This document shows positions 46,733 to 56,190 of a stretch of DNA of 64,000 nt, in pieces. Source of the DNA: Chloroflexota bacterium. Lineage in GTDB: Bacteria > Chloroflexota > UBA11872. The notes beneath the pieces were generated by a model. It was not told the origin of the DNA, did no database searches, and saw only the letters and a list, made by a program, of their open reading frames with translations. Where the stretch lies: NCBI GenBank assembly GCA_022825895.1, contig JAJDVX010000042.1, positions 6,525 through 70,524 on the forward strand, in the 5' to 3' direction. Position 1 is the stretch's first letter. Each line of letters starts with the position of its first letter. The position numbers and the translations under genes are program-made.

Positions 46733-46852
46733 ATTCTTCCCCTCTCCAAGGGGAGAGGCAGATTCGGGCGTCTTCGGCCGAAATCGGTGAGGGGTCTTCC
46801 GGGCAACCAGGCCTGGGTTGCGCAAAGGTCTCTCAGGAGACCTTTGAACAGC
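46733..46852. repeat. Repeat copy A (divergent) of a MITE-like element family
   Basis: Shares ggtgaggggtcttccgggcaacca..cctgggttgcgcaaaggtctctc and the gagacctttgaacagc tail with copies B-D. Confidence 0.6.
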
Positions 46853-46875
46853 GTCCCGCGTCCCCCAAGCCGCGT

Positions 46876-46958
46876 CCGCTCTTCCTCCCTCTCCCCGTGG
46901 GAGTGGGTTGGGGTGTGGGTCTTCCGGGCACCCAACCCAGGGTTCCGCGAAGCTCTTT
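46876..46958. repeat. Repeat copy B of the MITE-like element (gatA-gatB spacer)
   Basis: ccgctcttcctccctctccccgtgggagtgggttggggtgtgggtcttccgggcacccaacccagggttccgcgaag. It contains a CCCTCTCCC/GGGAGnGGG inverted repeat. Confidence 0.7.
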
Positions 46959-47032
46959 TCTAGCGGAAGGCGGAGCCTTCCTTGAGCTTGTCGAAGGGCC
47001 ACTCAAAGCAGTCGAAAGCCCCTCTTAAACCC

Positions 47033-48646
47033 ATGCCTACCGCCTACCGCACCGTCATCGGTCTGGAAACCCACGTCCAACTCCGCACCCGCAGCAAGAT
47101 GTTCTGCGGCTGCGCCGCCGACTACGCCAACGCCCGGCCCAACACCCACGTCTGCCCCGTCTGCCTGGGCATGCCCGGCGTCCTGCCCGTCATCAACCGC
47201 GAAGCCGTGGACCACACCATCCGCACCGGCCTGGCCCTCAACTGCGAGATTCCCGAATACGCCAAGTTCGACCGCAAGAACTACGCCTATCCCGACCTGA
47301 TGAAGTGGTACCAGATTTCCCAGTACGACCTCCCGCTCTGCATCGACGGCCACTTCGACGTCGAGGTGAACGGCGCAACCACCCGCGTTGGCATCACCCG
47401 CGTCCACCTGGAAGAGGACACCGCCCGCCTGACCCACGTAACCTCCGCCGACGGCGCCCCGGCCAGCCTGATCGACGTCAATCGCTCCGGCGCGCCGCTC
47501 ATGGAAATCGTCTCCGAGCCGGACATCCAGACGCCCGTCGAAGCCATGGCCTACGGCGAGAAGCTGCGCGCCCTGCTTCGCTGGATCGGCGTTTCTACCG
47601 CCAATATGGAGGACGGCGCCCTGCGCATCGACGCCAACATCTCAGTCTGGCCCCAGGGCGAACCGATCGGCGACGTCAAGGTCGAAGTCAAGAACATGAA
47701 CTCCTTCCGGTCGCTGGGCCGCGCCCTGGCCTTCGAAATCGAGCGCCAGACCGCCCGGCGCGAGCGCGGCGAACCGATCGAGCAGGAAACCCGCGGCTGG
47801 GACGAGACTTCAGGCACAACCCGCTCCCAGCGAACCAAGGAATACGCCCACGACTATCGCTACTTCCCCGAACCCGACCTGCCGCCCCTACACGTCACAC
47901 GTCAACGCGTCGACACCCTTCGCGCCGCCCTCCCCCGCATGCCCGACCAGGTCGCCGCCGACCTGCTCCAACAAGGCGCCCCCGAGGCCGACATCGCCGA
48001 ACTCGTCCAGGACCGTCCCCTCACCGACTACACCCTCGCCGTCATCGAAGCTGGCGCTTCCGCCGGCGAGGCCGTCACCTGGATCGTCCACGAACTCCGC
48101 CGCGCCCTCAACGCCCACACCGCCACCCGCCGTTCCCGCGAAAGCGGGAGCCCATCCGCTCTTCCTCCCTCTCCTGGGGGAGAGGGTTGGGGTGAGGGGT
48201 CTTCCGAGCAACCAACGCTCGGGTTAGGCAAAGGCCTCCAGGAAGGAAAGGACGGGAGTCAGGGTCGGCCGCCCCCCAACCGCCCAAGCGCAGGAACCAT
48301 CATCCCCATCCCTCCAGCTGAAATCGCCTCGCTCCTAGAATTCCGCGCCCAGGGCGCCGTCAGCAGCACCATGGCCGGCGAAGTCCTCGACGAAATGTTC
48401 GCCACCGGCAAGTCAGCACGGGCCATCGTGGAGGCCCGCGGCCCCCAGATCAGCGGCCAGGACGAACTCCTCGCCATCGCCCGCCAGGTCATTGAAGAGA
48501 ATCCCCAGGCCGTCCAGGACTACCGCGACGGCAAGGGCCGCGCCATCCAGTACCTCATGGGCCAGGTCATGCGCATCACCCGCGGCAAAGCCAACCCGGG
48601 CGCCGTAAGCGCGCTCATCCGTACCGAACTCGACGGCGCCAAATAA
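47033..48646 (+). CDS. gatB: Asp-tRNA(Asn)/Glu-tRNA(Gln) amidotransferase subunit B, with a ~55-aa repeat-derived in-frame insertion
   Basis: Internal ATG ([17 protein letters not shown]). GatB catalytic core and C-terminal YqeY-like tail. An extra segment in the linker before the tail is encoded by repeat copy C. Confidence 0.88.
48156..48238. repeat. Repeat copy C of the MITE-like element, located inside the gatB reading frame
   Basis: ccgctcttcctccctctcctgggggagagggttggggtgaggggtcttccgagcaaccaacgctcgggttaggcaaaggcctc. More than 85% identical to copies B and D. Read in frame as ...[33 protein letters not shown]... Confidence 0.75.
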
Positions 48647-48698: not shown

Positions 48699-48823
48699 AG
48701 AGACCTTTGCAGAACAGCCCCGCGCCCTCGAAAGTGGGGCCTCTCTTGCTCCCTCTCCCCGTGGGAGAGGGCTGGGGTGAGGGTCTTCCGCGCAACCAAC
48801 CCTGGGTTACGCAACGGTCTCTC
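48699..48823. repeat. Repeat copy D of the MITE-like element (downstream of gatB)
   Basis: agagacctttgcagaacagcc...gcctctcttgctccctctccccgtgggagagggctggggtgagggtcttccgcgcaaccaaccctgggttacgcaacggtctctc. Confidence 0.7.
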
Positions 48824-48904
48824 ACCAAGGGCTGTCGCGCCGAGCGCCTGCGAGCGACCTGGTCTAAAATAGACCAATCTAAACCTCCCACAGGAGCATC
48901 CGCG

Positions 48905-49183
48905 ATGGAGCACACCACATCGCAACGCACCTGGACCGTCGCCGAGGCCAAGGCCAAGCTGTCCGAGGTCCTGCGGCTCGCCGAGGAAGAAGGGCCCCAA
49001 CGCATCGGCCTGCGCCGGCCCTTCGTTGTCGTGCCCGAAGCGCTTTGGGACGCCAGGCAAGCGCGCGACAGGCACTTGGGCCGGTGGCTGCTTGAAAACG
49101 TGCCAAGGGGCCTGAACTGGGAAGTCCCCCGTGACCGGCGATCCGATAGGGCGGTTCCCTTTTCGGAAGAAGACGAACGGTGA
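48905..49183 (+). CDS. Type II antitoxin, Phd/YefM-like (VapB partner)
   Basis: Internal ATG with AGGAG 8 nt upstream. MEHTTSQRTWTVAEAKAKLSEVLRLAEEEGPQRI... Stop overlaps the vapC GTG start. Confidence 0.7.
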   Translation: MEHTTSQRTWTVAEAKAKLSEVLRLAEEEGPQRIGLRRPFVVVPEALWDARQARDRHLGRWLLENVPRGLNWEVPRDRRSDRAVPFSEEDER

Positions 49184-49599
49184 CGGGGTTTCTCCTGGAC
49201 ACGAACGTCATTTCCGAATTGACCAGGGACGAACCCGATTCGCGAGTGGTCCGGTTTCTCGACGACGAAGGCGACTTATGGCTGTCGTCCGTCGTCGTGT
49301 ACGAGATGGAATATGGCCTTGCGACCCTTCCCCAGGGGCGCCGCGCGGCAAGGTTGCGCGCTTTGCAAGCGAATATCCTCGCCGCCTTTGCAGGCCGGCT
49401 CCTGTCCTTGGATCAATCCGGCGCCCGCTGGTCAGCCGAGCTCCGAGCGCAGGCACGCCACGTCGGGCGGACCATCGACGTCGGTGACGCCCTCATCGCC
49501 GGCACTGCCAGAGCGCACGGCCTGGCCCTCGCCACCCGCAACATCCGCGACTTCCAGGGAATGGACATCCACCTCGTCAACCCCTGGGACTACCCATAA
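49180..49599 (+). CDS. vapC: Type II toxin VapC (PIN domain ribonuclease)
   Basis: 139 aa. GTG start. LLDTNVISEL...D...acidic PIN residues...ATRNIRDF. Confidence 0.85.
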   Translation: MTGFLLDTNVISELTRDEPDSRVVRFLDDEGDLWLSSVVVYEMEYGLATLPQGRRAARLRALQANILAAFAGRLLSLDQSGARWSAELRAQARHVGRTIDVGDALIAGTARAHGLALATRNIRDFQGMDIHLVNPWDYP

Positions 49600-49966
49600 C
49601 GGTCTTCGCCCACGCGCACTCCCAGAACGCCGCCACCCGCCCTTCGTCCGCGCCCCCCGTTCGTGGTCAGCCTGTCCTGAGCTTGTCGAAGCGGACGGGC
49701 CAGAGTCTTCGGCGGCCCGTGTCGAACCACAAAGGCCCAGCATCCAACCCTCCCAGACAGTCCCCTCCGTCATTCCGGAGGCTTCACCCGGAGTCCAGGG
49801 CCCTCAACCTGCAACCTGTGCCTCGGCGCCCGTCAGACGTCCGAGCGAACTAGTTAGACCATTCCTGGTACCGCGCCATTCCGCCCCGCGTATCGCTCCA
49901 CGCTCCAACGCCTTCCTCCGACCAGCCCACGTATCATGCCCGCGCCAACAGTGAGGGCGGATCACG

Positions 49967-52588
49967 ATGGCTAGACGGGCAGGTTGCGAACCGGCCTACG
50001 ACGCTGCCCAACGCTGGGTCGACGCAGCCTTACGCAAGGACGACTCGCTCTTCACCCCTGGCCACCCAATCTGGTCACTGCACAACCTCTATGACTTCCG
50101 CAAGCGAATATTCGATGACTCCGGACCGTCTCACGGAGGGTTTTATCGTCGATTCGAGCACCAACTCAGAGATGCACCATCCGATACTATTCAAATTGCC
50201 GCCGAAATCCTCTACGTGTACTTTCTGATCGCCGACCAGCGTGCCATACGAGGAACCACAAAGAGGCAACGGATCCGGGAAGTCATTAGCTGGGCTCCCA
50301 CTGCCCTGGAGGTCCCTGCCAATCTAATCGAGTCCGATATCGCAATCGATTCTGGAATAATGAATCCAGGAGCCGCGTCCCAGACGACTATCCACGCCCA
50401 AGTCCATATGATTGCTGAATTTGTATTGCACTGGAAGCAGCTTCCTGAAAGCGATCGTAGAGACTCCCTATCAGATCCTTGGGGTTTCTTGCAGGCCGTC
50501 CGATCGGTCCAAGTTCCCAGAGCCCAACCACAAGCGGAAGCGTTGCTGCATCTCGTCCATCCAGATTCATTCGAACCAAGTATGAGGAATGATAAGGGAC
50601 AGATTAGATCATCGTTTAACGATTCCTTGATTGCTCAGGCTGATGACGTTGATAGAGATTTATTCACAATACGTGAGCAACTGACCGGCATATCAAGCAT
50701 TTACAGAGAAGGTTTCGACTTTTACTCGCCTGAGATACATTTCGTTTGGAGTTCAGGATGGACCAAATTAGAACAATTCGTTCGCTGGGGAAATCGTTTC
50801 TTGGAGCATCCCAGCTTTGTTGAACTCGAGATTGACATCAAGCTCAGTCCTGCAGACCGCCTCAAACAGGCTCGATCTGCACTGGAATCTGGAGCAGACA
50901 ATTGGCTTGCCCTGCTAGAGGAAGCCTTCAAGAATCATGCTCTAGTGAGGTTTGACTCACGTGACGCATTTATCAAGTGGTGTAAGGAGAATGAGTCTGA
51001 CGCAAAGTCCGCTCTTCGGGAATTATGGAACGATCAAGCCGGCATCGTCGAATCAGTTCGATCTTTCTCGTCGCAGTTTCCAATGAGCGTCGTTCGCGGA
51101 GTAGGCACACGGACAAGGTTGATTTCGTTTCTAGCGATGGCCATTGATCCACGCCGATACCCTATATACGGGTACTCGCTCTTCCAGAATGCATACAACC
51201 TGGTCGGACACGATCCACCGGAAGATAGTGCTGACGAGGCTGACGTCTACTCCCATGCCCTCAGATTCCTGGACACCGTGCTGGACGAAGCAAAGAAGCA
51301 TGAACTTCACTTGCCGGATCGTCTGTACGCCCAGTCGGTGCTCTGGTCAATCACACGACCCGACCGATACGAGACGATCCTCCAGAAGGCTGAGCACGAA
51401 GCTTTTCGTCGATACCGTGGCGACGTTATAGCCCCGAGTCTCACGTTTGAGGAGCTTGTAGAAAATCAACGATTCGTCCAGAACCGCGAAATCACGGCCA
51501 TTAGCCTGCCCAACGCAAGCGACGGAAGCGGGGATCTGACATATGCGCTTACTCCACCACCCCCCGCCGGACTCAACTTCGATTCAATTGCCCGCACCCT
51601 GACCGGTACACCATCGGCAACGCAGCCAGCCACGACCTACATCTACACGGCAGTCGACGGGGACGGTGCCAGCGCCACGCAGGATTTCTCGATTACGGTG
51701 TCCGCTGAGACGCTTCATGACCTCGCTGCCCGGCTCTATTGGGACGCCGAGCACCTCCAAAACATCCAGCGCCTGATCGAGGACAAGGGCCAAATCGTCT
51801 TCTACGGCCCGCCGGGCACCGGCAAGACCTTCGTCGCCCAGGAACTCGCCAGTCACTTCGCCCGCGCCGAAGGCTCAACCGACCTCGTCCAATTCCACCC
51901 GTCGTACGCCTACGAAGACTTTGTGGAGGGCTTCCGTCCAGACACGATCAGGGACCAACCAGGCTTCAAACTACGCGAAGGCCCCCTCAAGCGCATTGCC
52001 GACAAAGCCCGCGCCAATCCCAACGCAACCCACGTCCTGGTCATCGACGAAATCAACCGCGGCAACGTCGCCCGGGTCTTCGGCGAGCTCTACTTCCTGC
52101 TCGAATACCGCGACCGCGAGATATCGCTCCAATACTCCGAGCAACAATTCGCACTCCCCAAGAATCTTTGGTTCATCGCCACCATGAACACCGCCGACCG
52201 ATCCATCGCCCTGGTGGACGCCGCCCTCCGCCGCCGCTTCCACTTCGTCGAGTTCTCACCGCACACGCCGCCCGTCCAGGGCCTGCTAACCCGCTGGCTT
52301 GAAACGAGAGAGTCCGACCTTCAATGGGTCGCCAGGTTGCTGGACCTGGCCAACGACAAACTCAGCGACCGCCACCTGGCCATCGGCCCCAGCCACTTCA
52401 TGCAAAAGAATCTTGACGAAACATGGGTCGAGTTGATCTGGAACCACTCGATCTACCCGTATGTTGAAGAACAACTCTTCGGGGATTACGACCGCCTCCA
52501 AGATTTTAAGTTCGAGAATCTCAAGCGTGCGGCGCAGCGGCAGGATCGGAGTCCAGGCAGCGGCGATGACACGCCTGACGCTGACTGA
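49967..52588 (+). CDS. mcrB: McrB-family AAA+ GTPase with a ~570-aa uncharacterised N-terminal region
   Basis: 873 aa. The C-terminal 300 aa (GPPGTGKTF Walker A, VLVIDEINRGNVARVFGELYFLLEYR, FIATMNTADRS, RRRFHFVEF) are an McrB-type GTPase. The N-terminal region has no confident match and has lower GC. Confidence 0.8.
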   Translation: MARRAGCEPAYDAAQRWVDAALRKDDSLFTPGHPIWSLHNLYDFRKRIFDDSGPSHGGFYRRFEHQLRDAPSDTIQIAAEILYVYFLIADQRAIRGTTKRQRIREVISWAPTALEVPANLIESDIAIDSGIMNPGAASQTTIHAQVHMIAEFVLHWKQLPESDRRDSLSDPWGFLQAVRSVQVPRAQPQAEALLHLVHPDSFEPSMRNDKGQIRSSFNDSLIAQADDVDRDLFTIREQLTGISSIYREGFDFYSPEIHFVWSSGWTKLEQFVRWGNRFLEHPSFVELEIDIKLSPADRLKQARSALESGADNWLALLEEAFKNHALVRFDSRDAFIKWCKENESDAKSALRELWNDQAGIVESVRSFSSQFPMSVVRGVGTRTRLISFLAMAIDPRRYPIYGYSLFQNAYNLVGHDPPEDSADEADVYSHALRFLDTVLDEAKKHELHLPDRLYAQSVLWSITRPDRYETILQKAEHEAFRRYRGDVIAPSLTFEELVENQRFVQNREITAISLPNASDGSGDLTYALTPPPPAGLNFDSIARTLTGTPSATQPATTYIYTAVDGDGASATQDFSITVSAETLHDLAARLYWDAEHLQNIQRLIEDKGQIVFYGPPGTGKTFVAQELASHFARAEGSTDLVQFHPSYAYEDFVEGFRPDTIRDQPGFKLREGPLKRIADKARANPNATHVLVIDEINRGNVARVFGELYFLLEYRDREISLQYSEQQFALPKNLWFIATMNTADRSIALVDAALRRRFHFVEFSPHTPPVQGLLTRWLETRESDLQWVARLLDLANDKLSDRHLAIGPSHFMQKNLDETWVELIWNHSIYPYVEEQLFGDYDRLQDFKFENLKRAAQRQDRSPGSGDDTPDAD

Positions 52589-53795
52589 GCACCAACCGCG
52601 CGAGAATGTTCGTCTCACGTCCGAGCAACTTGACACGCTCCTGCGCTTGGTGCGCTCGGTCGACGTGTCGCCAACGTCCACGAGCAACACCTGGATTCTG
52701 AGGCCTGGCTCCCAGGTAGGCGTCGTTCGCCTGCCCGATCTCACCGTCGAAATCCGGCCCAAGCTCCCCATCCACCGCGTCCTCTTCCTGGCCTCGTACG
52801 CCCTCGGCGCCTTCAAGCTCAAGCCCGACATCGCGGACATCGATCGATCACCCGACCTGGTGGAAGCCATGGTCCAGCTATTTCACGCCGCCGTCCGGCA
52901 GGCCACTGGGCGCGGCTTATTGCAGGGCTATAGGACTCACGAGGAAACGCTGAACGTCGTCCGCGGGCGCATTCGCATTGAGGAGCAACTGCGTCGGCGC
53001 TTCGGCATCCCCGTCCCCATTGAGGTCCGCTACGACGAATTCACGCCTGACATCCCGGCCAACCGCATCCTCAAGGCCGCCGTGGGCCGGCTGGCCTGGC
53101 TGCCGCACCGCTCCCGCGACACGCGCCGGCTGCTGAGTGTCATGCGCGCCGTCTTGGCCAACGTGTCGGACGTCGAATATCGCTCGAACGATATCCCCAA
53201 CATTCCCATCACCCCGCTGAACACCCACTACCGGCCCGCTCTGGCCCTGGCCCGACTCATCCTCAAGTCGGGCGCTGTCGAACTCGCGGCTGGCAAGGTC
53301 GAATCCGCCTCGTTCCTGATCGACATGAACAAAGTGTTCGAAGATTTCGTGGTCGTCGGCCTGCGCGAAGCGCTCGGTCTGACGGAATACACCTTTCCCC
53401 AGGAAGCACACGGCCGCGAACTCTGGCTGGCTGCGGGCCAGAAAGTACGGCTAAAGCCGGACATCTCCTGGTGGCAAGACAACCGTTGCATATTCGTCGG
53501 CGACGCCAAGTACAAGCGCACCACCGCTCACGGCGCCCAGAACCACGACATCTATCAGGCCCTCGCCTACGCCGTCGCCGCCGGCCTGCCTGGCGCCCTC
53601 CTTATCTACGCTCACGACGAACAGGAACGCGTCGCCCCTGCCGTCTACGACATCCCGCACGCCAACAAGCGCATTGAGGTCATGGTCCTGGACCTACGCG
53701 GCTCGCGGGATGAACTCATGCAACGCATTCACGCCCTCGCCCACAAGGTTCGCGCAAACGTGGCGCCGGTCACGGCTGCCCACCTCGCCGCCTGA
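52566..53795 (+). CDS. mcrC: McrC-family nuclease subunit (PD-(D/E)xK)
   Basis: Internal ATG overlapping the mcrB 3' end by 23 nt. D...IFVGDAKYK PD-(D/E)xK core. Typical McrC length and position. Confidence 0.8.
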   Translation: MTRLTLTEHQPRENVRLTSEQLDTLLRLVRSVDVSPTSTSNTWILRPGSQVGVVRLPDLTVEIRPKLPIHRVLFLASYALGAFKLKPDIADIDRSPDLVEAMVQLFHAAVRQATGRGLLQGYRTHEETLNVVRGRIRIEEQLRRRFGIPVPIEVRYDEFTPDIPANRILKAAVGRLAWLPHRSRDTRRLLSVMRAVLANVSDVEYRSNDIPNIPITPLNTHYRPALALARLILKSGAVELAAGKVESASFLIDMNKVFEDFVVVGLREALGLTEYTFPQEAHGRELWLAAGQKVRLKPDISWWQDNRCIFVGDAKYKRTTAHGAQNHDIYQALAYAVAAGLPGALLIYAHDEQERVAPAVYDIPHANKRIEVMVLDLRGSRDELMQRIHALAHKVRANVAPVTAAHLAA

Positions 53796-54121
53796 GCCAG
53801 CCACGGCCTCGGGCGCGTCGATGCCCAACAGCGGCAGGCAACTCCTAAGGATTCCTTAGTTGTTCGAACCGCGGGCACACCCAGTCAAACGACACCTCGG
53901 CCACGACAGCTCGAATCCGTCGTCGCGATTGGTCTCGGGATCAGAGCCCGAGGCCACCTGCCCTGGCGCCGCTAGACTCCGGCAACTTGTGCAGAATCTG
54001 CACAAGTTCGAACCGAGAGCGGTTGAGTCCATCTCCCGCGAGATCCAACTACCGAGGAATCCTCGGTAGTTGCAAACGACGCCGACCGGCTCGCCCACCG
54101 CCCCTCATCGTCGCCGCTACC

Positions 54122-54439
54122 TCAGATCGGGACTTCCCTCAGTTCCCCGGGGCCTATGTGGTCAAGCGCCGTACGGATCTCCTCCACGCGCAGCTGCACC
54201 TTGGGCCACGCGGTAGAAAGCAGAACCACCACGGCCAGCCTTCGGCCGGCAAGGTTCTGCTGATATCGCAAATTCTGATCGGTAGTGATCAGGACGTCGT
54301 AGCCCGCCTGTTCGGCGCTGTCGATCAGGTCCCCGTTATCCATATCCGACCAGCCGCGCTCCGCTGCCGTGTCCACGACATGACTGTCCAAGTGACGACG
54401 CAGCGGCGCCGGTGTGCCCTGATCGAACAGAATCCTCAC
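54122..54439 (-). CDS. DUF5615 PIN-like domain protein (putative toxin partner of DUF433)
   Basis: 105 aa. MRILFDQGTP...DSAEQAGYDVLITTDQNL pattern typical of DUF5615. Confidence 0.7.
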   Translation of the reverse strand: MRILFDQGTPAPLRRHLDSHVVDTAAERGWSDMDNGDLIDSAEQAGYDVLITTDQNLRYQQNLAGRRLAVVVLLSTAWPKVQLRVEEIRTALDHIGPGELREVPI

Positions 54440-54663
54440 GGTTGCGCGGGAACTCGCAGAGCCTCCGCTTCGTGTTCCAGCACCGCTCGAACCTGCCAGG
54501 CTTCAACGCCCGGGAACCATTCCAGAAACTGGCCAACCGTAGCGCCGCTCTCCAGGTTCTCGAAGAGGGCGGAAACCGGCACCCGCGTTCCGGCGAACGT
54601 CCACGCCCCGCTGAGCTTTCCGGGACGACATTCCACCGCCGGGCACCTCTCCCAGTCGGTCAC
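54436..54663 (-). CDS. DUF433 domain protein (putative antitoxin)
   Basis: 75 aa. PGKLSGAWTFAGTRVPVSALFENLESGATVGQFLEWFP matches the DUF433 core. Stop overlaps the downstream DUF5615 start. Confidence 0.7.
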   Translation of the reverse strand: MTDWERCPAVECRPGKLSGAWTFAGTRVPVSALFENLESGATVGQFLEWFPGVEAWQVRAVLEHEAEALRVPAQP

Positions 54664-56041: not shown

Positions 56042-56078
56042 TACCCCCGCCCTATACCCGCCGCGGGGCGACGGGGTG

Positions 56079-56190
56079 GACACATTCGGCGCAAAACTGA
56101 ACACATTCGCCGGAAAACTGAACACATTGGGCGCAAAACTGAACACATTCGCCAGAAAACTGAACACTTCGCACGATTCCGCTGAACAGG
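56079..56190 (+). repeat. Tandem direct repeat, 21-bp unit (g[c/g]aaaactgaacacattcgcc), about 4.5 copies
   Basis: gacacattcggc|gcaaaactgaacacattcgcc|ggaaaactgaacacattgggc|gcaaaactgaacacattcgcc|agaaaactgaacacttcgcac|gattccgctgaaca. Begins 38 nt after the dprA stop. Confidence 0.85.

Follow-up and report, generated by a model that had tools for sequence, protein, structure and literature searches.

A McrBC-type restriction operon of a Chloroflexota bacterium with a three-module N-terminal region in its McrB homologue

Few restriction systems are as common as McrBC, and the N-terminal reader of McrB sets what McrBC can attack. A stretch of 64,000 nucleotides from a Chloroflexota bacterium (assembly GCA_022825895.1, contig JAJDVX010000042.1, positions 6,525 to 70,524 of the forward strand), referred to as the window in the following, contains an mcrBC gene pair whose McrB homologue carries about 580 amino acids ahead of its GTPase motor. 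This raises the question of what this N-terminal region consists of and what it might recognise. The region was found to be composed of three modules, designated A, B and He_PIG, and we consider it somewhat better than an even chance that the locus is a functional chromosomal operon of the McrBC type (Type IV-like and GTP-driven), which restricts DNA in a modification-dependent manner and possesses a composite, shuffled sensor. Coordinates are positions in the window and residue numbers are those of the window McrB unless stated otherwise; the features are collected in Table 1.

Searches with residues 1-508 against Pfam, NCBIfam, PADLOC and, by sequence, the PDB (phmmer and profile hmmsearch) gave no match, and a Pfam scan of 22 family members at E-values of up to 10 returned scattered single chance matches only. 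An earlier reading of the locus made from its sequence alone (the sequence-only reading) had stated that the N-terminal region is far larger than the DNA-binding domains of characterised McrB proteins and has no recognisable match. Both statements hold: apart from He_PIG, no curated family covers this region, and no known McrB- or LlaJI-type domain was found in the N-terminal region. The same reading had, however, regarded it as one region of about 570 amino acids, and in this respect it has to be revised, since modules A, B and He_PIG are separable. A single novel domain of this size is ruled out by insertions of about 160 amino acids, which are located exactly at the A/B boundary (residues 261/262) in eight proteins, and by the existence of A-only, B-B and A-EVE architectures. 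The AlphaFold2 model of residues 1-508, which was built from an alignment of 111 sequences, is all-alpha (pLDDT 92.4, pTM 0.87).

A homologue search with residues 1-508 identified 306 proteins, nearly all of which are McrB-like proteins of about 780-810 amino acids without He_PIG; the latter is confined to the closest ~25 of them (870-890 amino acids). Among 1.84 billion clusters of 50% identity, the N-terminal profile matched 3,890 representatives at E<=1e-3 and 1,549 at E<=1e-30, and it was mapped onto 267 retrieved proteins to obtain architectures and residue frequencies. Two of these proteins, P0167 and P0218, contain two tandem copies of module B and no module A. The distance between the end of module B and Walker A has a baseline of about 45 amino acids, to which He_PIG adds about 80 and unknown inserts about 165; further classes are extended by about 300 amino acids (EVE plus more) or reach up to about 630. 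Given these architecture classes, module A is the constant element and module B an optional and independent one, while the slot just before the N-linker of the motor varies and can hold many different inserts, He_PIG being one of them. The slot inserts of P0165 and P0213 (~165 amino acids in proteins of ~950-970) and of P0182 and P0226 (~600 amino acids in proteins of ~1400) have no Pfam match. The same is true for the segment between module A and the motor of P0263 (483 amino acids, truncated), which looks PUA/EVE-like by eye. Homologues of about 520-550 amino acids (P0037, P0104, P0115 and others) were considered as stand-alone, free sensors, a possibility that was discarded: they end in or just before Walker A and are truncated or frameshifted McrB genes.

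Residues S27, W36, E80, K157, H195, P199, F202 and E203 are invariant across module A of McrB, EVE-McrB, TIR and plasmid proteins, and every aligned copy of the module ends alike (...FYxxxhxxxW261). In the minimal A-McrB proteins, module A is the only candidate target-recognition domain. Module A is best regarded as a widespread all-alpha N-terminal domain of McrB that has no previous description and is also used by TIR effectors. The A-TIR proteins (TIR_2; loci L086 and L087, 8001-9266) come from several metagenomes, and their neighbour genes are unrelated and mostly located on the opposite strand; they are candidate single-gene defence proteins that share their sensor with this McrB lineage. 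In P0256 (647 amino acids), module A is attached to a C-terminus that is not of the AAA+ type. Plasmids from cultured members of Mycobacterium, Brucella, Streptomyces and Rhodococcus also encode McrB motors that are preceded by module A alone. Among the cultured strains with operons of minimal A-McrB and McrC are M. gordonae (plasmid p1, L088, 4941-8128) and Brucella anthropi ATCC 49188 (pOANT03, L089, 180-3603), in which the genes are annotated just as 'AAA family ATPase' together with 'hypothetical protein' or 'McrC family protein'.

An origin of modules A and B by internal duplication was rejected, as hhalign of the two halves gave nothing; by eye only, 'ALLHLVHPDTFEP' in module A resembles 'ASFLLMAxDPxxYP' in module B. 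Comparisons of module A with the Ogg2 family, hOGG1 and E. coli Nth by hhalign were negative. In its broadest form, the proposal is that module A represents an undescribed family sensing a trigger (nucleic acid, modified base or nucleotide) for two mechanistically unrelated effectors, McrBC and TIR NADases, and serving as a platform for grafted, interchangeable readers (module B, EVE, DUF8426 and He_PIG), and that both A and B may have arisen by degeneration from HhH-GPD glycosylases. This is possible, albeit doubtful.

The AlphaFold2 model of residues 255-490, which comprises module B, is all-alpha as well (pLDDT 94.1, pTM 0.91). Structural comparison yielded scores of 5.2 for hOGG1, 5.1 for DUF2419, 4.7 for Mag1, 4.6 for EndoIII and 4.5 for MagIII, followed by Cac-Ogg and AGOG (4.4 each), AlkA (4.0) and MutY (3.9). 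Each of these glycosylase and DUF2419 matches aligned 114-145 residues, compared with mostly 50-120 residues for unrelated matches. As far as the model can tell, HhH-GPD glycosylases are the closest structural matches of module B, with the Ogg2 family being the nearest, and an HhH-GPD-like fold of module B is regarded as fairly probable. The model places a Gly-x-Gly hairpin between helices 360-370 and 381-390. Across the 267 family members, the two hairpin glycines G378 and G380 are conserved in 78% and 77%, respectively, P399 in 94% and D394 in 81%. Position 382 is occupied by Arg in 85% of the members, compared with 2% that have Lys there; an aromatic residue, Tyr or Phe, is present at position 401 in 89%, position 400 is P, I or V, and residues 398-406 contain no conserved acidic residue. 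In HhH-GPD enzymes, the catalytic Asp is expected about 18-20 residues past the hairpin, and bifunctional members additionally use a Lys. A gap-free register against the hOGG1 motif LPGVGTK249...PVD268, which was checked in the PDB chains (the MjOgg and Tm1821 sequences being taken from PDB alignments), puts R382 at the position of the catalytic Lys and Y401 at that of the catalytic Asp. An arginine at the Lys position and an aromatic residue at the Asp position suggest that module B is catalytically disabled, if the fold assignment is right.

It could be argued that module B is nevertheless an active glycosylase with non-canonical residues, which excises a base and leaves the abasic DNA to McrBC. 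The glycosylase-like fold and the conservation of D394 close to the hairpin would agree with such an activity. Glycosylase-based anti-phage defence is reportedly the subject of a preprint on a 5-hydroxymethylcytosine glycosylase, and it also exists in the form of Brig1 (cited in PMC12191111). However, the residues found at positions 382 and 401 and the lack of a conserved acid at 398-406 argue against it, and D394 is located 12 residues past R382, in the loop after helix 381-390, while the Asp of the glycosylase family would N-cap the helix that starts at 403. Since module B is also dispensable in many relatives, catalysis by this module is improbable, and a non-catalytic role is preferred.

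Several observations weigh against the glycosylase assignment itself or against DNA reading by modules A and B. A Foldseek search of the PDB with the 508-residue model gave nothing significant (best E 0.5), the only plausible match being SsOgg with a target TM-score of 0.45. The scan of 22 members mentioned above detected no HhH-GPD or OGG family in Pfam. A hhalign comparison of the module B profile (233 sequences) with an Ogg2 profile of 122 sequences (120 Tm1821 homologues, MjOgg and 9o00) gave a probability of <1%, and comparisons with the single sequences of hOGG1 and E. coli Nth were equally negative (<1%). A tblastn search of 72,556 plasmids found module A only and no module B, so that module B is not close to the C-terminal domains of END nucleases that were tied to McrB by PSI-BLAST. 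Furthermore, the catalytic residues were assigned by motif alignment and not by structural superposition, and the highly conserved D394 could have an unforeseen role. HhH-GPD glycosylases that occur as separate proteins tend to be basic. The median pI in the family is 5.5 for module A and 5.3 for module B, an acidity not commonly seen in a glycosylase fold that binds DNA, and the pI of He_PIG is even 4.05 with just two basic residues.

In the C-terminal part of the protein, the sequence-only reading had recognised a McrB AAA+ GTPase, and this assignment is borne out by database matches and by the presence of every motif it had quoted. Pfam AAA_5 matches residues 610-758 (E 1.5e-20), and the E. 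coli McrB chain 6hz4 aligns with residues 586-843 (E 2e-40). The NCBIfam model McrB (PRK11331) matches residues 573-774 only, with an E-value of 1e-39 and 136 bits compared with an equivalog cut-off of 637 bits; the score stays below the cut-off because the motor alone matches. The window McrB is a homologue of the E. coli McrB motor but not an equivalog, with an unrelated N-terminus. The motor motifs are intact: GPPGTGKT (614-621), VLVIDEINR (690-698), NRGNVARVFGE (697-707), MNTADRS (740-746) and RRRFHF (755-760). MNTADRS, the NxxD signature of McrB that replaces sensor I, lines up with MNTADRS of E. coli McrB. The N-linker ahead of Walker A is conserved across the family, and the precomputed annotation, which is based on a newer Pfam release, added nothing except PF28529 (McrB_lid) in the C-terminal part. 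An identical McrB protein is encoded on four metagenome contigs.

The second gene was likewise correctly identified as encoding a McrC-type PD-(D/E)xK partner with an overlapping start, as indicated by its PF10117 match. Its start codon ATG at 52566 (MTRLTL...) overlaps the mcrB stop by 23 nucleotides and is also used by the gene calls on the four metagenome contigs; the mechanically predicted open reading frame begins upstream of it, at 52461. The nuclease motif of McrC is intact, with KPD at 297-299 and D313-A-K315 aligned to T. gammatolerans McrC (6ut5_G). Disrupted motifs, which would indicate pseudogenes, were found in neither protein, and the two-gene restriction module of the McrBC type is intact and forms a translationally coupled operon.

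The Ig-like segment noticed in the sequence-only reading is a genuine Pfam match above the gathering score: He_PIG (PF05345) covers residues 514-579 with an E-value of 7.6e-11 and 42.8 bits (cut-off 24), corresponding to profile positions 21-96 of 96. In comparison with the 785-793-amino-acid homologues P0025 and P0027, it forms a clean insertion of about 80 amino acids at residues ~488-580. A literature search found no paper tying He_PIG to restriction. The domain is present in six of the 80 species loci described below, namely the closest ones, and in about 28 protein clusters, with 52-71% identity in the segment. This degree of identity within the clade shows that He_PIG is not junk. Being clade-specific and strongly acidic, it is unlikely to be the key DNA reader, and a role as spacer or positioning element is more likely.

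The distribution of the family was examined in one genome per GTDB species, which yielded at least 251 relatives; locus counts refer to the best 80 of 251. These are metagenome-assembled genomes (MAGs) of Chloroflexota (Dehalococcoidia, SAR202), Acidimicrobiia, Acidobacteriota and Planctomycetota. The motor directly follows the N-terminal modules in 79 of the 80 loci, and McrC is encoded directly downstream in 77. As the sequence-only reading had stated, the N-terminal region is low in GC: the GC content at third codon positions (GC3) is 0.53-0.55 for residues 1-485, 0.67 for He_PIG, 0.78 for the motor and 0.81 for mcrC, compared with 0.83-0.86 for the housekeeping genes gatB and dprA nearby. 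A GC3 step within the mcrB open reading frame (49967-52585) is also found in relative L001 (8001-10631). Divergence has been faster in the N-terminal modules, with 36-47% identity, than in the motor, with 55-67%, and identities to the window McrB are discordant between modules: P0005 shares 45% in A and 64% in B, and P0022 shares 51% in A and 41% in B. Taken together, the faster divergence, the discordant identities and the GC3 step point to recombinational shuffling of sensor modules and to a chimeric origin of mcrB. Fast divergence, discordance and a separate codon composition would be expected of swapped specificity modules. The Chloroflexota MAG OZ244593.1 (L065, 5977-13431; see also L013) carries two tandem A-B-McrB/McrC operons, whose McrB proteins are 73% identical, and a third copy elsewhere in the genome. 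Such tandem paralogous operons suggest that specificities are diversifying within one genome.

The sharp GC3 mosaic within a single open reading frame, and the fact that He_PIG is typical of surface proteins according to its Pfam description, could also mean that He_PIG or even the whole N-terminus has no function and was inserted by chance from a gene for a surface protein or from a donor of lower GC content, giving a chimeric and perhaps decaying gene. This is scarcely credible. The open reading frame is uninterrupted and all motifs are intact, and neither a signal peptide nor a hydrophobic segment was found in the window McrB (maximal 19-residue Kyte-Doolittle mean 1.15). The He_PIG architecture has been kept in six species genomes and about 28 clusters at identities that indicate purifying selection, and thousands of clusters retain modules A and B. 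The idea of an accidental insertion is thus largely refuted by conservation.

How might the system work? By analogy with McrBC of E. coli and T. gammatolerans, the AAA+ GTPase of McrB would form hexamers, McrC would bind the McrB hexamer and stimulate its GTPase, and after translocation McrC would cut the DNA with its PD-(D/E)xK site. Target recognition would be the task of the composite N-terminal region. Module A probably makes the basic target contact, because it is the sole N-terminal domain in the minimal relatives. Module B most likely provides a pocket without catalytic activity, in which a non-canonical base is read after being flipped out; the inactivated EndoIII domain of END nucleases has been proposed to act in this way. 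He_PIG would serve as spacer or positioning element in the slot before the motor. EVE, a known modified-base reader, takes the position of module B in P0261 and the He_PIG slot in P0139, P0133 and P0186. DNA binding, base flipping, the dependence on modification and the modification that is read are all inferred.

Alternatively, the N-terminal modules may not sense modified bases in duplex DNA but bind a protein of the phage, a particular structure of the DNA, or modified nucleotides or nucleobases in free form, and such binding would license the McrBC motor-nuclease. Module A would then be a general trigger sensor, and the glycosylase look of module B would be due to convergent packing or nucleotide binding. 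It would fit this idea that module A is also joined to TIR and to the unrelated C-terminus of P0256, that modules A and B are acidic, that the sequence-profile tests for HhH-GPD were negative and that DUF2419, a queuine-salvage enzyme of the free-nucleotide type, comes out near the top of the structural comparison. In addition, some relatives possess EVE on top of A and B, so that A and B need not read modified bases. However, it is established that the N-terminal domain binds DNA in all characterised canonical McrB proteins (10.64898/2026.08.31.748284), and the presence of EVE in the place of module B in P0261 argues for equivalent roles. Moreover, module A is the sole candidate for DNA binding in the minimal A-McrB proteins, and module B aligns best, and over long stretches, with the structures of DNA glycosylases. 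Sensing of something other than modified duplex DNA is therefore considered unlikely, and reading of modified bases by the composite region is preferred.

The immediate surroundings of the operon were inspected for further components. The mcrBC pair lies between gatCAB (gatB) and dprA, in a small islet of defence and toxin-antitoxin genes. Toxin-antitoxin pairs are found on both sides of it: Phd/YefM-PIN precedes the operon, and DUF433 follows it together with a gene that matches DUF5615 weakly. Phd/YefM-PIN and DUF433 genes are likewise found near mcrBC of relative L001. No methyltransferase gene was found beside mcrBC at the window locus or in L001; together with the toxin-antitoxin neighbours, this fits a modification-dependent better than a methylation-protected system. 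It is conceivable that the operon encodes a sequence-specific McrBC of the LlaJI/BsuMI kind, which cuts unmodified sites while the host methyltransferase is encoded elsewhere, as site-specific non-canonical McrBC homologues exist (10.64898/2026.08.31.748284). Yet the operon consists of two and not three genes, the NTAD signature is canonical and neither locus has an adjacent methyltransferase, which makes this highly improbable compared with modification-dependent restriction. HhH-GPD genes were found neither in the window nor in the fetched loci.

Relative P0002 has the same mcrBC pair amid other neighbours, including a SLFN/AlbA_2 protein and toxin-antitoxin genes, which is consistent with a mobile defence islet. 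A phage origin was dismissed, as only one relative was present among 2.9 million viral contigs. No tRNA that could mark an integration site was detected in the window, and a promoter and terminator scan of 49500-54200 gave matches no more numerous than in shuffled sequence. A repeat of about 100 nucleotides occurs in three to four copies with 63-80% identity (46786-46963, 48135-48243 and 48719-48827). One copy lies within the gatB open reading frame (46982-48646), apparently in frame, where it contributes an extra stretch of protein, and the others are located in the spacers on either side of gatB; the repeat could be an element similar to miniature inverted-repeat transposable elements or repetitive extragenic palindromes, which is tolerated in the essential gene gatB. 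A 21-nucleotide tandem repeat (TGAACACATTCGCCGGAAAAC-like) is present in about five copies at 56077-56181, in the spacer between dprA and secD.

Table 1. Features of the window around mcrBC (positions in the window) and domain architectures of relatives (protein identifiers).
Feature	Position or proteins	Strand	Basis or remark
mcrB homologue, 873 aa (stop included)	49967..52588	+	Open reading frame; AAA_5, He_PIG and NCBIfam McrB matches; 6hz4
Module A (residues 1-261), all-alpha, no curated family	49967..50749	+	AlphaFold2 model; homologue insertions; A-only architectures
Module B (residues 262-485), all-alpha, predicted HhH-GPD DNA-glycosylase-like fold, catalytic positions substituted	50750..51421	+
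HhH-like hairpin and next loop of module B (G378-V-G380-T-R382 ... D394-P ... P399-I-Y401)	51098..51169	+	Family frequencies; hOGG1 motif register
Slot insert (residues ~488-580) with He_PIG Ig-like domain	51428..51706	+	Pfam; homologue comparison
N-linker, McrB AAA+ GTPase and lid	51707..52585	+	Pfam, NCBIfam and 6hz4 matches; motif scan
Walker A	51806-51829	+
Walker B	52034-52060	+
NxxD signature MNTADRS	52184-52204	+
RRRF	52229-52246	+
mcrC homologue, 409 aa	52566..53795	+	Pfam McrBC PF10117, E 1.6e-59; NCBIfam McrC, 1.2e-26; TgMcrC 6ut5_G, 6e-10
McrC PD-(D/E)xK motif, KPD ... GDAKYK	53454-53468 ... 53499-53516	+
Toxin-antitoxin pair Phd/YefM (48905-49183) and PIN (49180-49599)	48905..49599	+	Context, outside the system
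DUF5615 (54122-54439, weak match below cut-off) and DUF433 (54436-54663)	54122..54663	-	Context, outside the system
A-McrB, minimal, 580-615 aa	P0273, P0274, P0278-P0280; M. gordonae plasmid WP_205878899
A-McrB with insertion inside the motor	Brucella anthropi ATCC 49188 pOANT03 WP_011983100		Followed by a gene annotated 'McrC family protein'
A-EVE-McrB	P0261, P0259
A-DUF8426-McrB	P0275
A-B-EVE-McrB	P0139, P0133, P0186
A-TIR, stand-alone genes, 421-427 aa	P0247, P0268-P0271
A plus unrelated 380-aa C-terminus	P0256

The locus exposes a large lineage of thousands of clusters with an unannotated reader region. It is found mainly in uncultured Chloroflexota and Acidimicrobiia, and simpler relatives reside on plasmids of cultured Actinomycetota and Pseudomonadota. 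Module A, which McrB shares with TIR effectors, is a candidate new sensor domain whose cultured hosts include Brucella anthropi ATCC 49188 (pOANT03) and Mycobacterium gordonae. If module B is indeed a dead glycosylase reader, the principle of END nucleases would extend to the McrBC motor, and a specificity for hypermodified bases rather than 5-methylcytosine would be predicted. If both A and B are degenerate HhH-GPD domains, they would represent a large overlooked class of glycosylase-derived readers of Type IV restriction. Additional domains that recognise modified bases would also be useful in practice, as tools for epigenomics.

How does the locus compare with known systems? Like the canonical McrBC systems of E. 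coli K-12 and T. gammatolerans, it is an operon of two genes in which mcrB comes before mcrC and overlaps it. It shares with them the AAA+ GTPase with Walker A and B, MNTADRS, Arg finger and lid, a McrC protein with a DUF2357/McrBC domain and a PD-(D/E)xK nuclease, and a target-recognition N-terminus joined via an N-linker. In contrast to the ~160-amino-acid DUF3578/SRA-like domain of E. coli and the YTH-like domain of T. gammatolerans, however, the N-terminus comprises about 580 amino acids in three modules, two of which (A and B) are all-alpha and belong to no curated family. The EVE/PUA-McrB proteins (Bell et al. 2020, PMC7641849; 2024, PMC11090510) also carry a modular specificity domain before the McrB motor. 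The window protein lacks EVE and has module B and He_PIG instead, and a counterpart of module A is not described for EVE-McrB proteins in the text searched.

Among the Ogg2 glycosylases (Tm1821, 3n0u; MjOgg, 3fhf; SsOgg, 3fhg), no profile similarity to module B is detectable. The catalytic residues of MjOgg, Lys129 and Asp147, correspond to Arg and to Tyr/Phe or an aliphatic residue in module B. Unlike these enzymes, module B is acidic and not basic, and it is a domain within a restriction motor and not a free repair enzyme. The concept of a dead HhH-type glycosylase domain as base reader on a defence effector is shared with the END nucleases: according to a 2025 preprint (PMC12191111), an inactivated EndoIII/Ogg1 domain sets the recognition of hypermodified bases, and its authors state that an inactivated EndoIII/Ogg sensor is also found fused to a McrB-like GTPase. 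The effectors of END nucleases are, however, PLD (HxK) or NucS-like nucleases, whereas here the effector is McrB/McrC with McrC as a separate nuclease, and AAA+ and He_PIG were the only domains found in the window McrB. Module A before and He_PIG after module B are not mentioned in the text of the preprint that was consulted. A relationship of module B to the END sensors would be one of fold, to which the substituted catalytic positions would fit; no HMMER-level match to any Pfam model, including OGG-like and HhH-GPD models, and no BLAST-level link to plasmid proteins was found, and module B would therefore be at best a much more divergent relative.

CoCoNuT systems (CnuB/CnuC; PMC11090510) are McrBC-derived as well and have enlarged, unusual N-termini, and an Ig-like beta-sandwich is described there for the McrC homologues. 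They differ by an NxD signature, long coiled coils and predicted RNA targeting, whereas the window McrB has NTAD (NxxD), a compact globular helical N-terminus and the Ig-like domain in McrB itself; the NxxD signature and the absence of coiled coils exclude membership in CoCoNuT. Membership in the LlaJI/LlaI/BsuMI type was rejected because of the single fused McrB without an R1 subunit, the two-gene locus and the absence of a methyltransferase. Glycosylase, HhH and TIR all go unmentioned in a census paper on McrBC. The sequence-only reading had proposed an undescribed variant of a modification-dependent system. This is correct in so far as no curated family apart from He_PIG covers the region, but the architecture is not rare (3,890 clusters, 251 GTDB species genomes), and the concept of a dead glycosylase sensor is already present in PMC12191111. 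What was known before is that McrB N-termini vary in fold, and fusions of dead glycosylase sensors to McrB had likewise been described in outline. The three-module anatomy and module A as a large undescribed family shared with TIR are new, as are the highly divergent, putatively glycosylase-like module B and the presence of He_PIG within a restriction motor that acts in the cytoplasm. Neither the motor nor the nuclease departs from ordinary McrBC, and the locus is thus an unstudied variant of a known defence system rather than a new kind.

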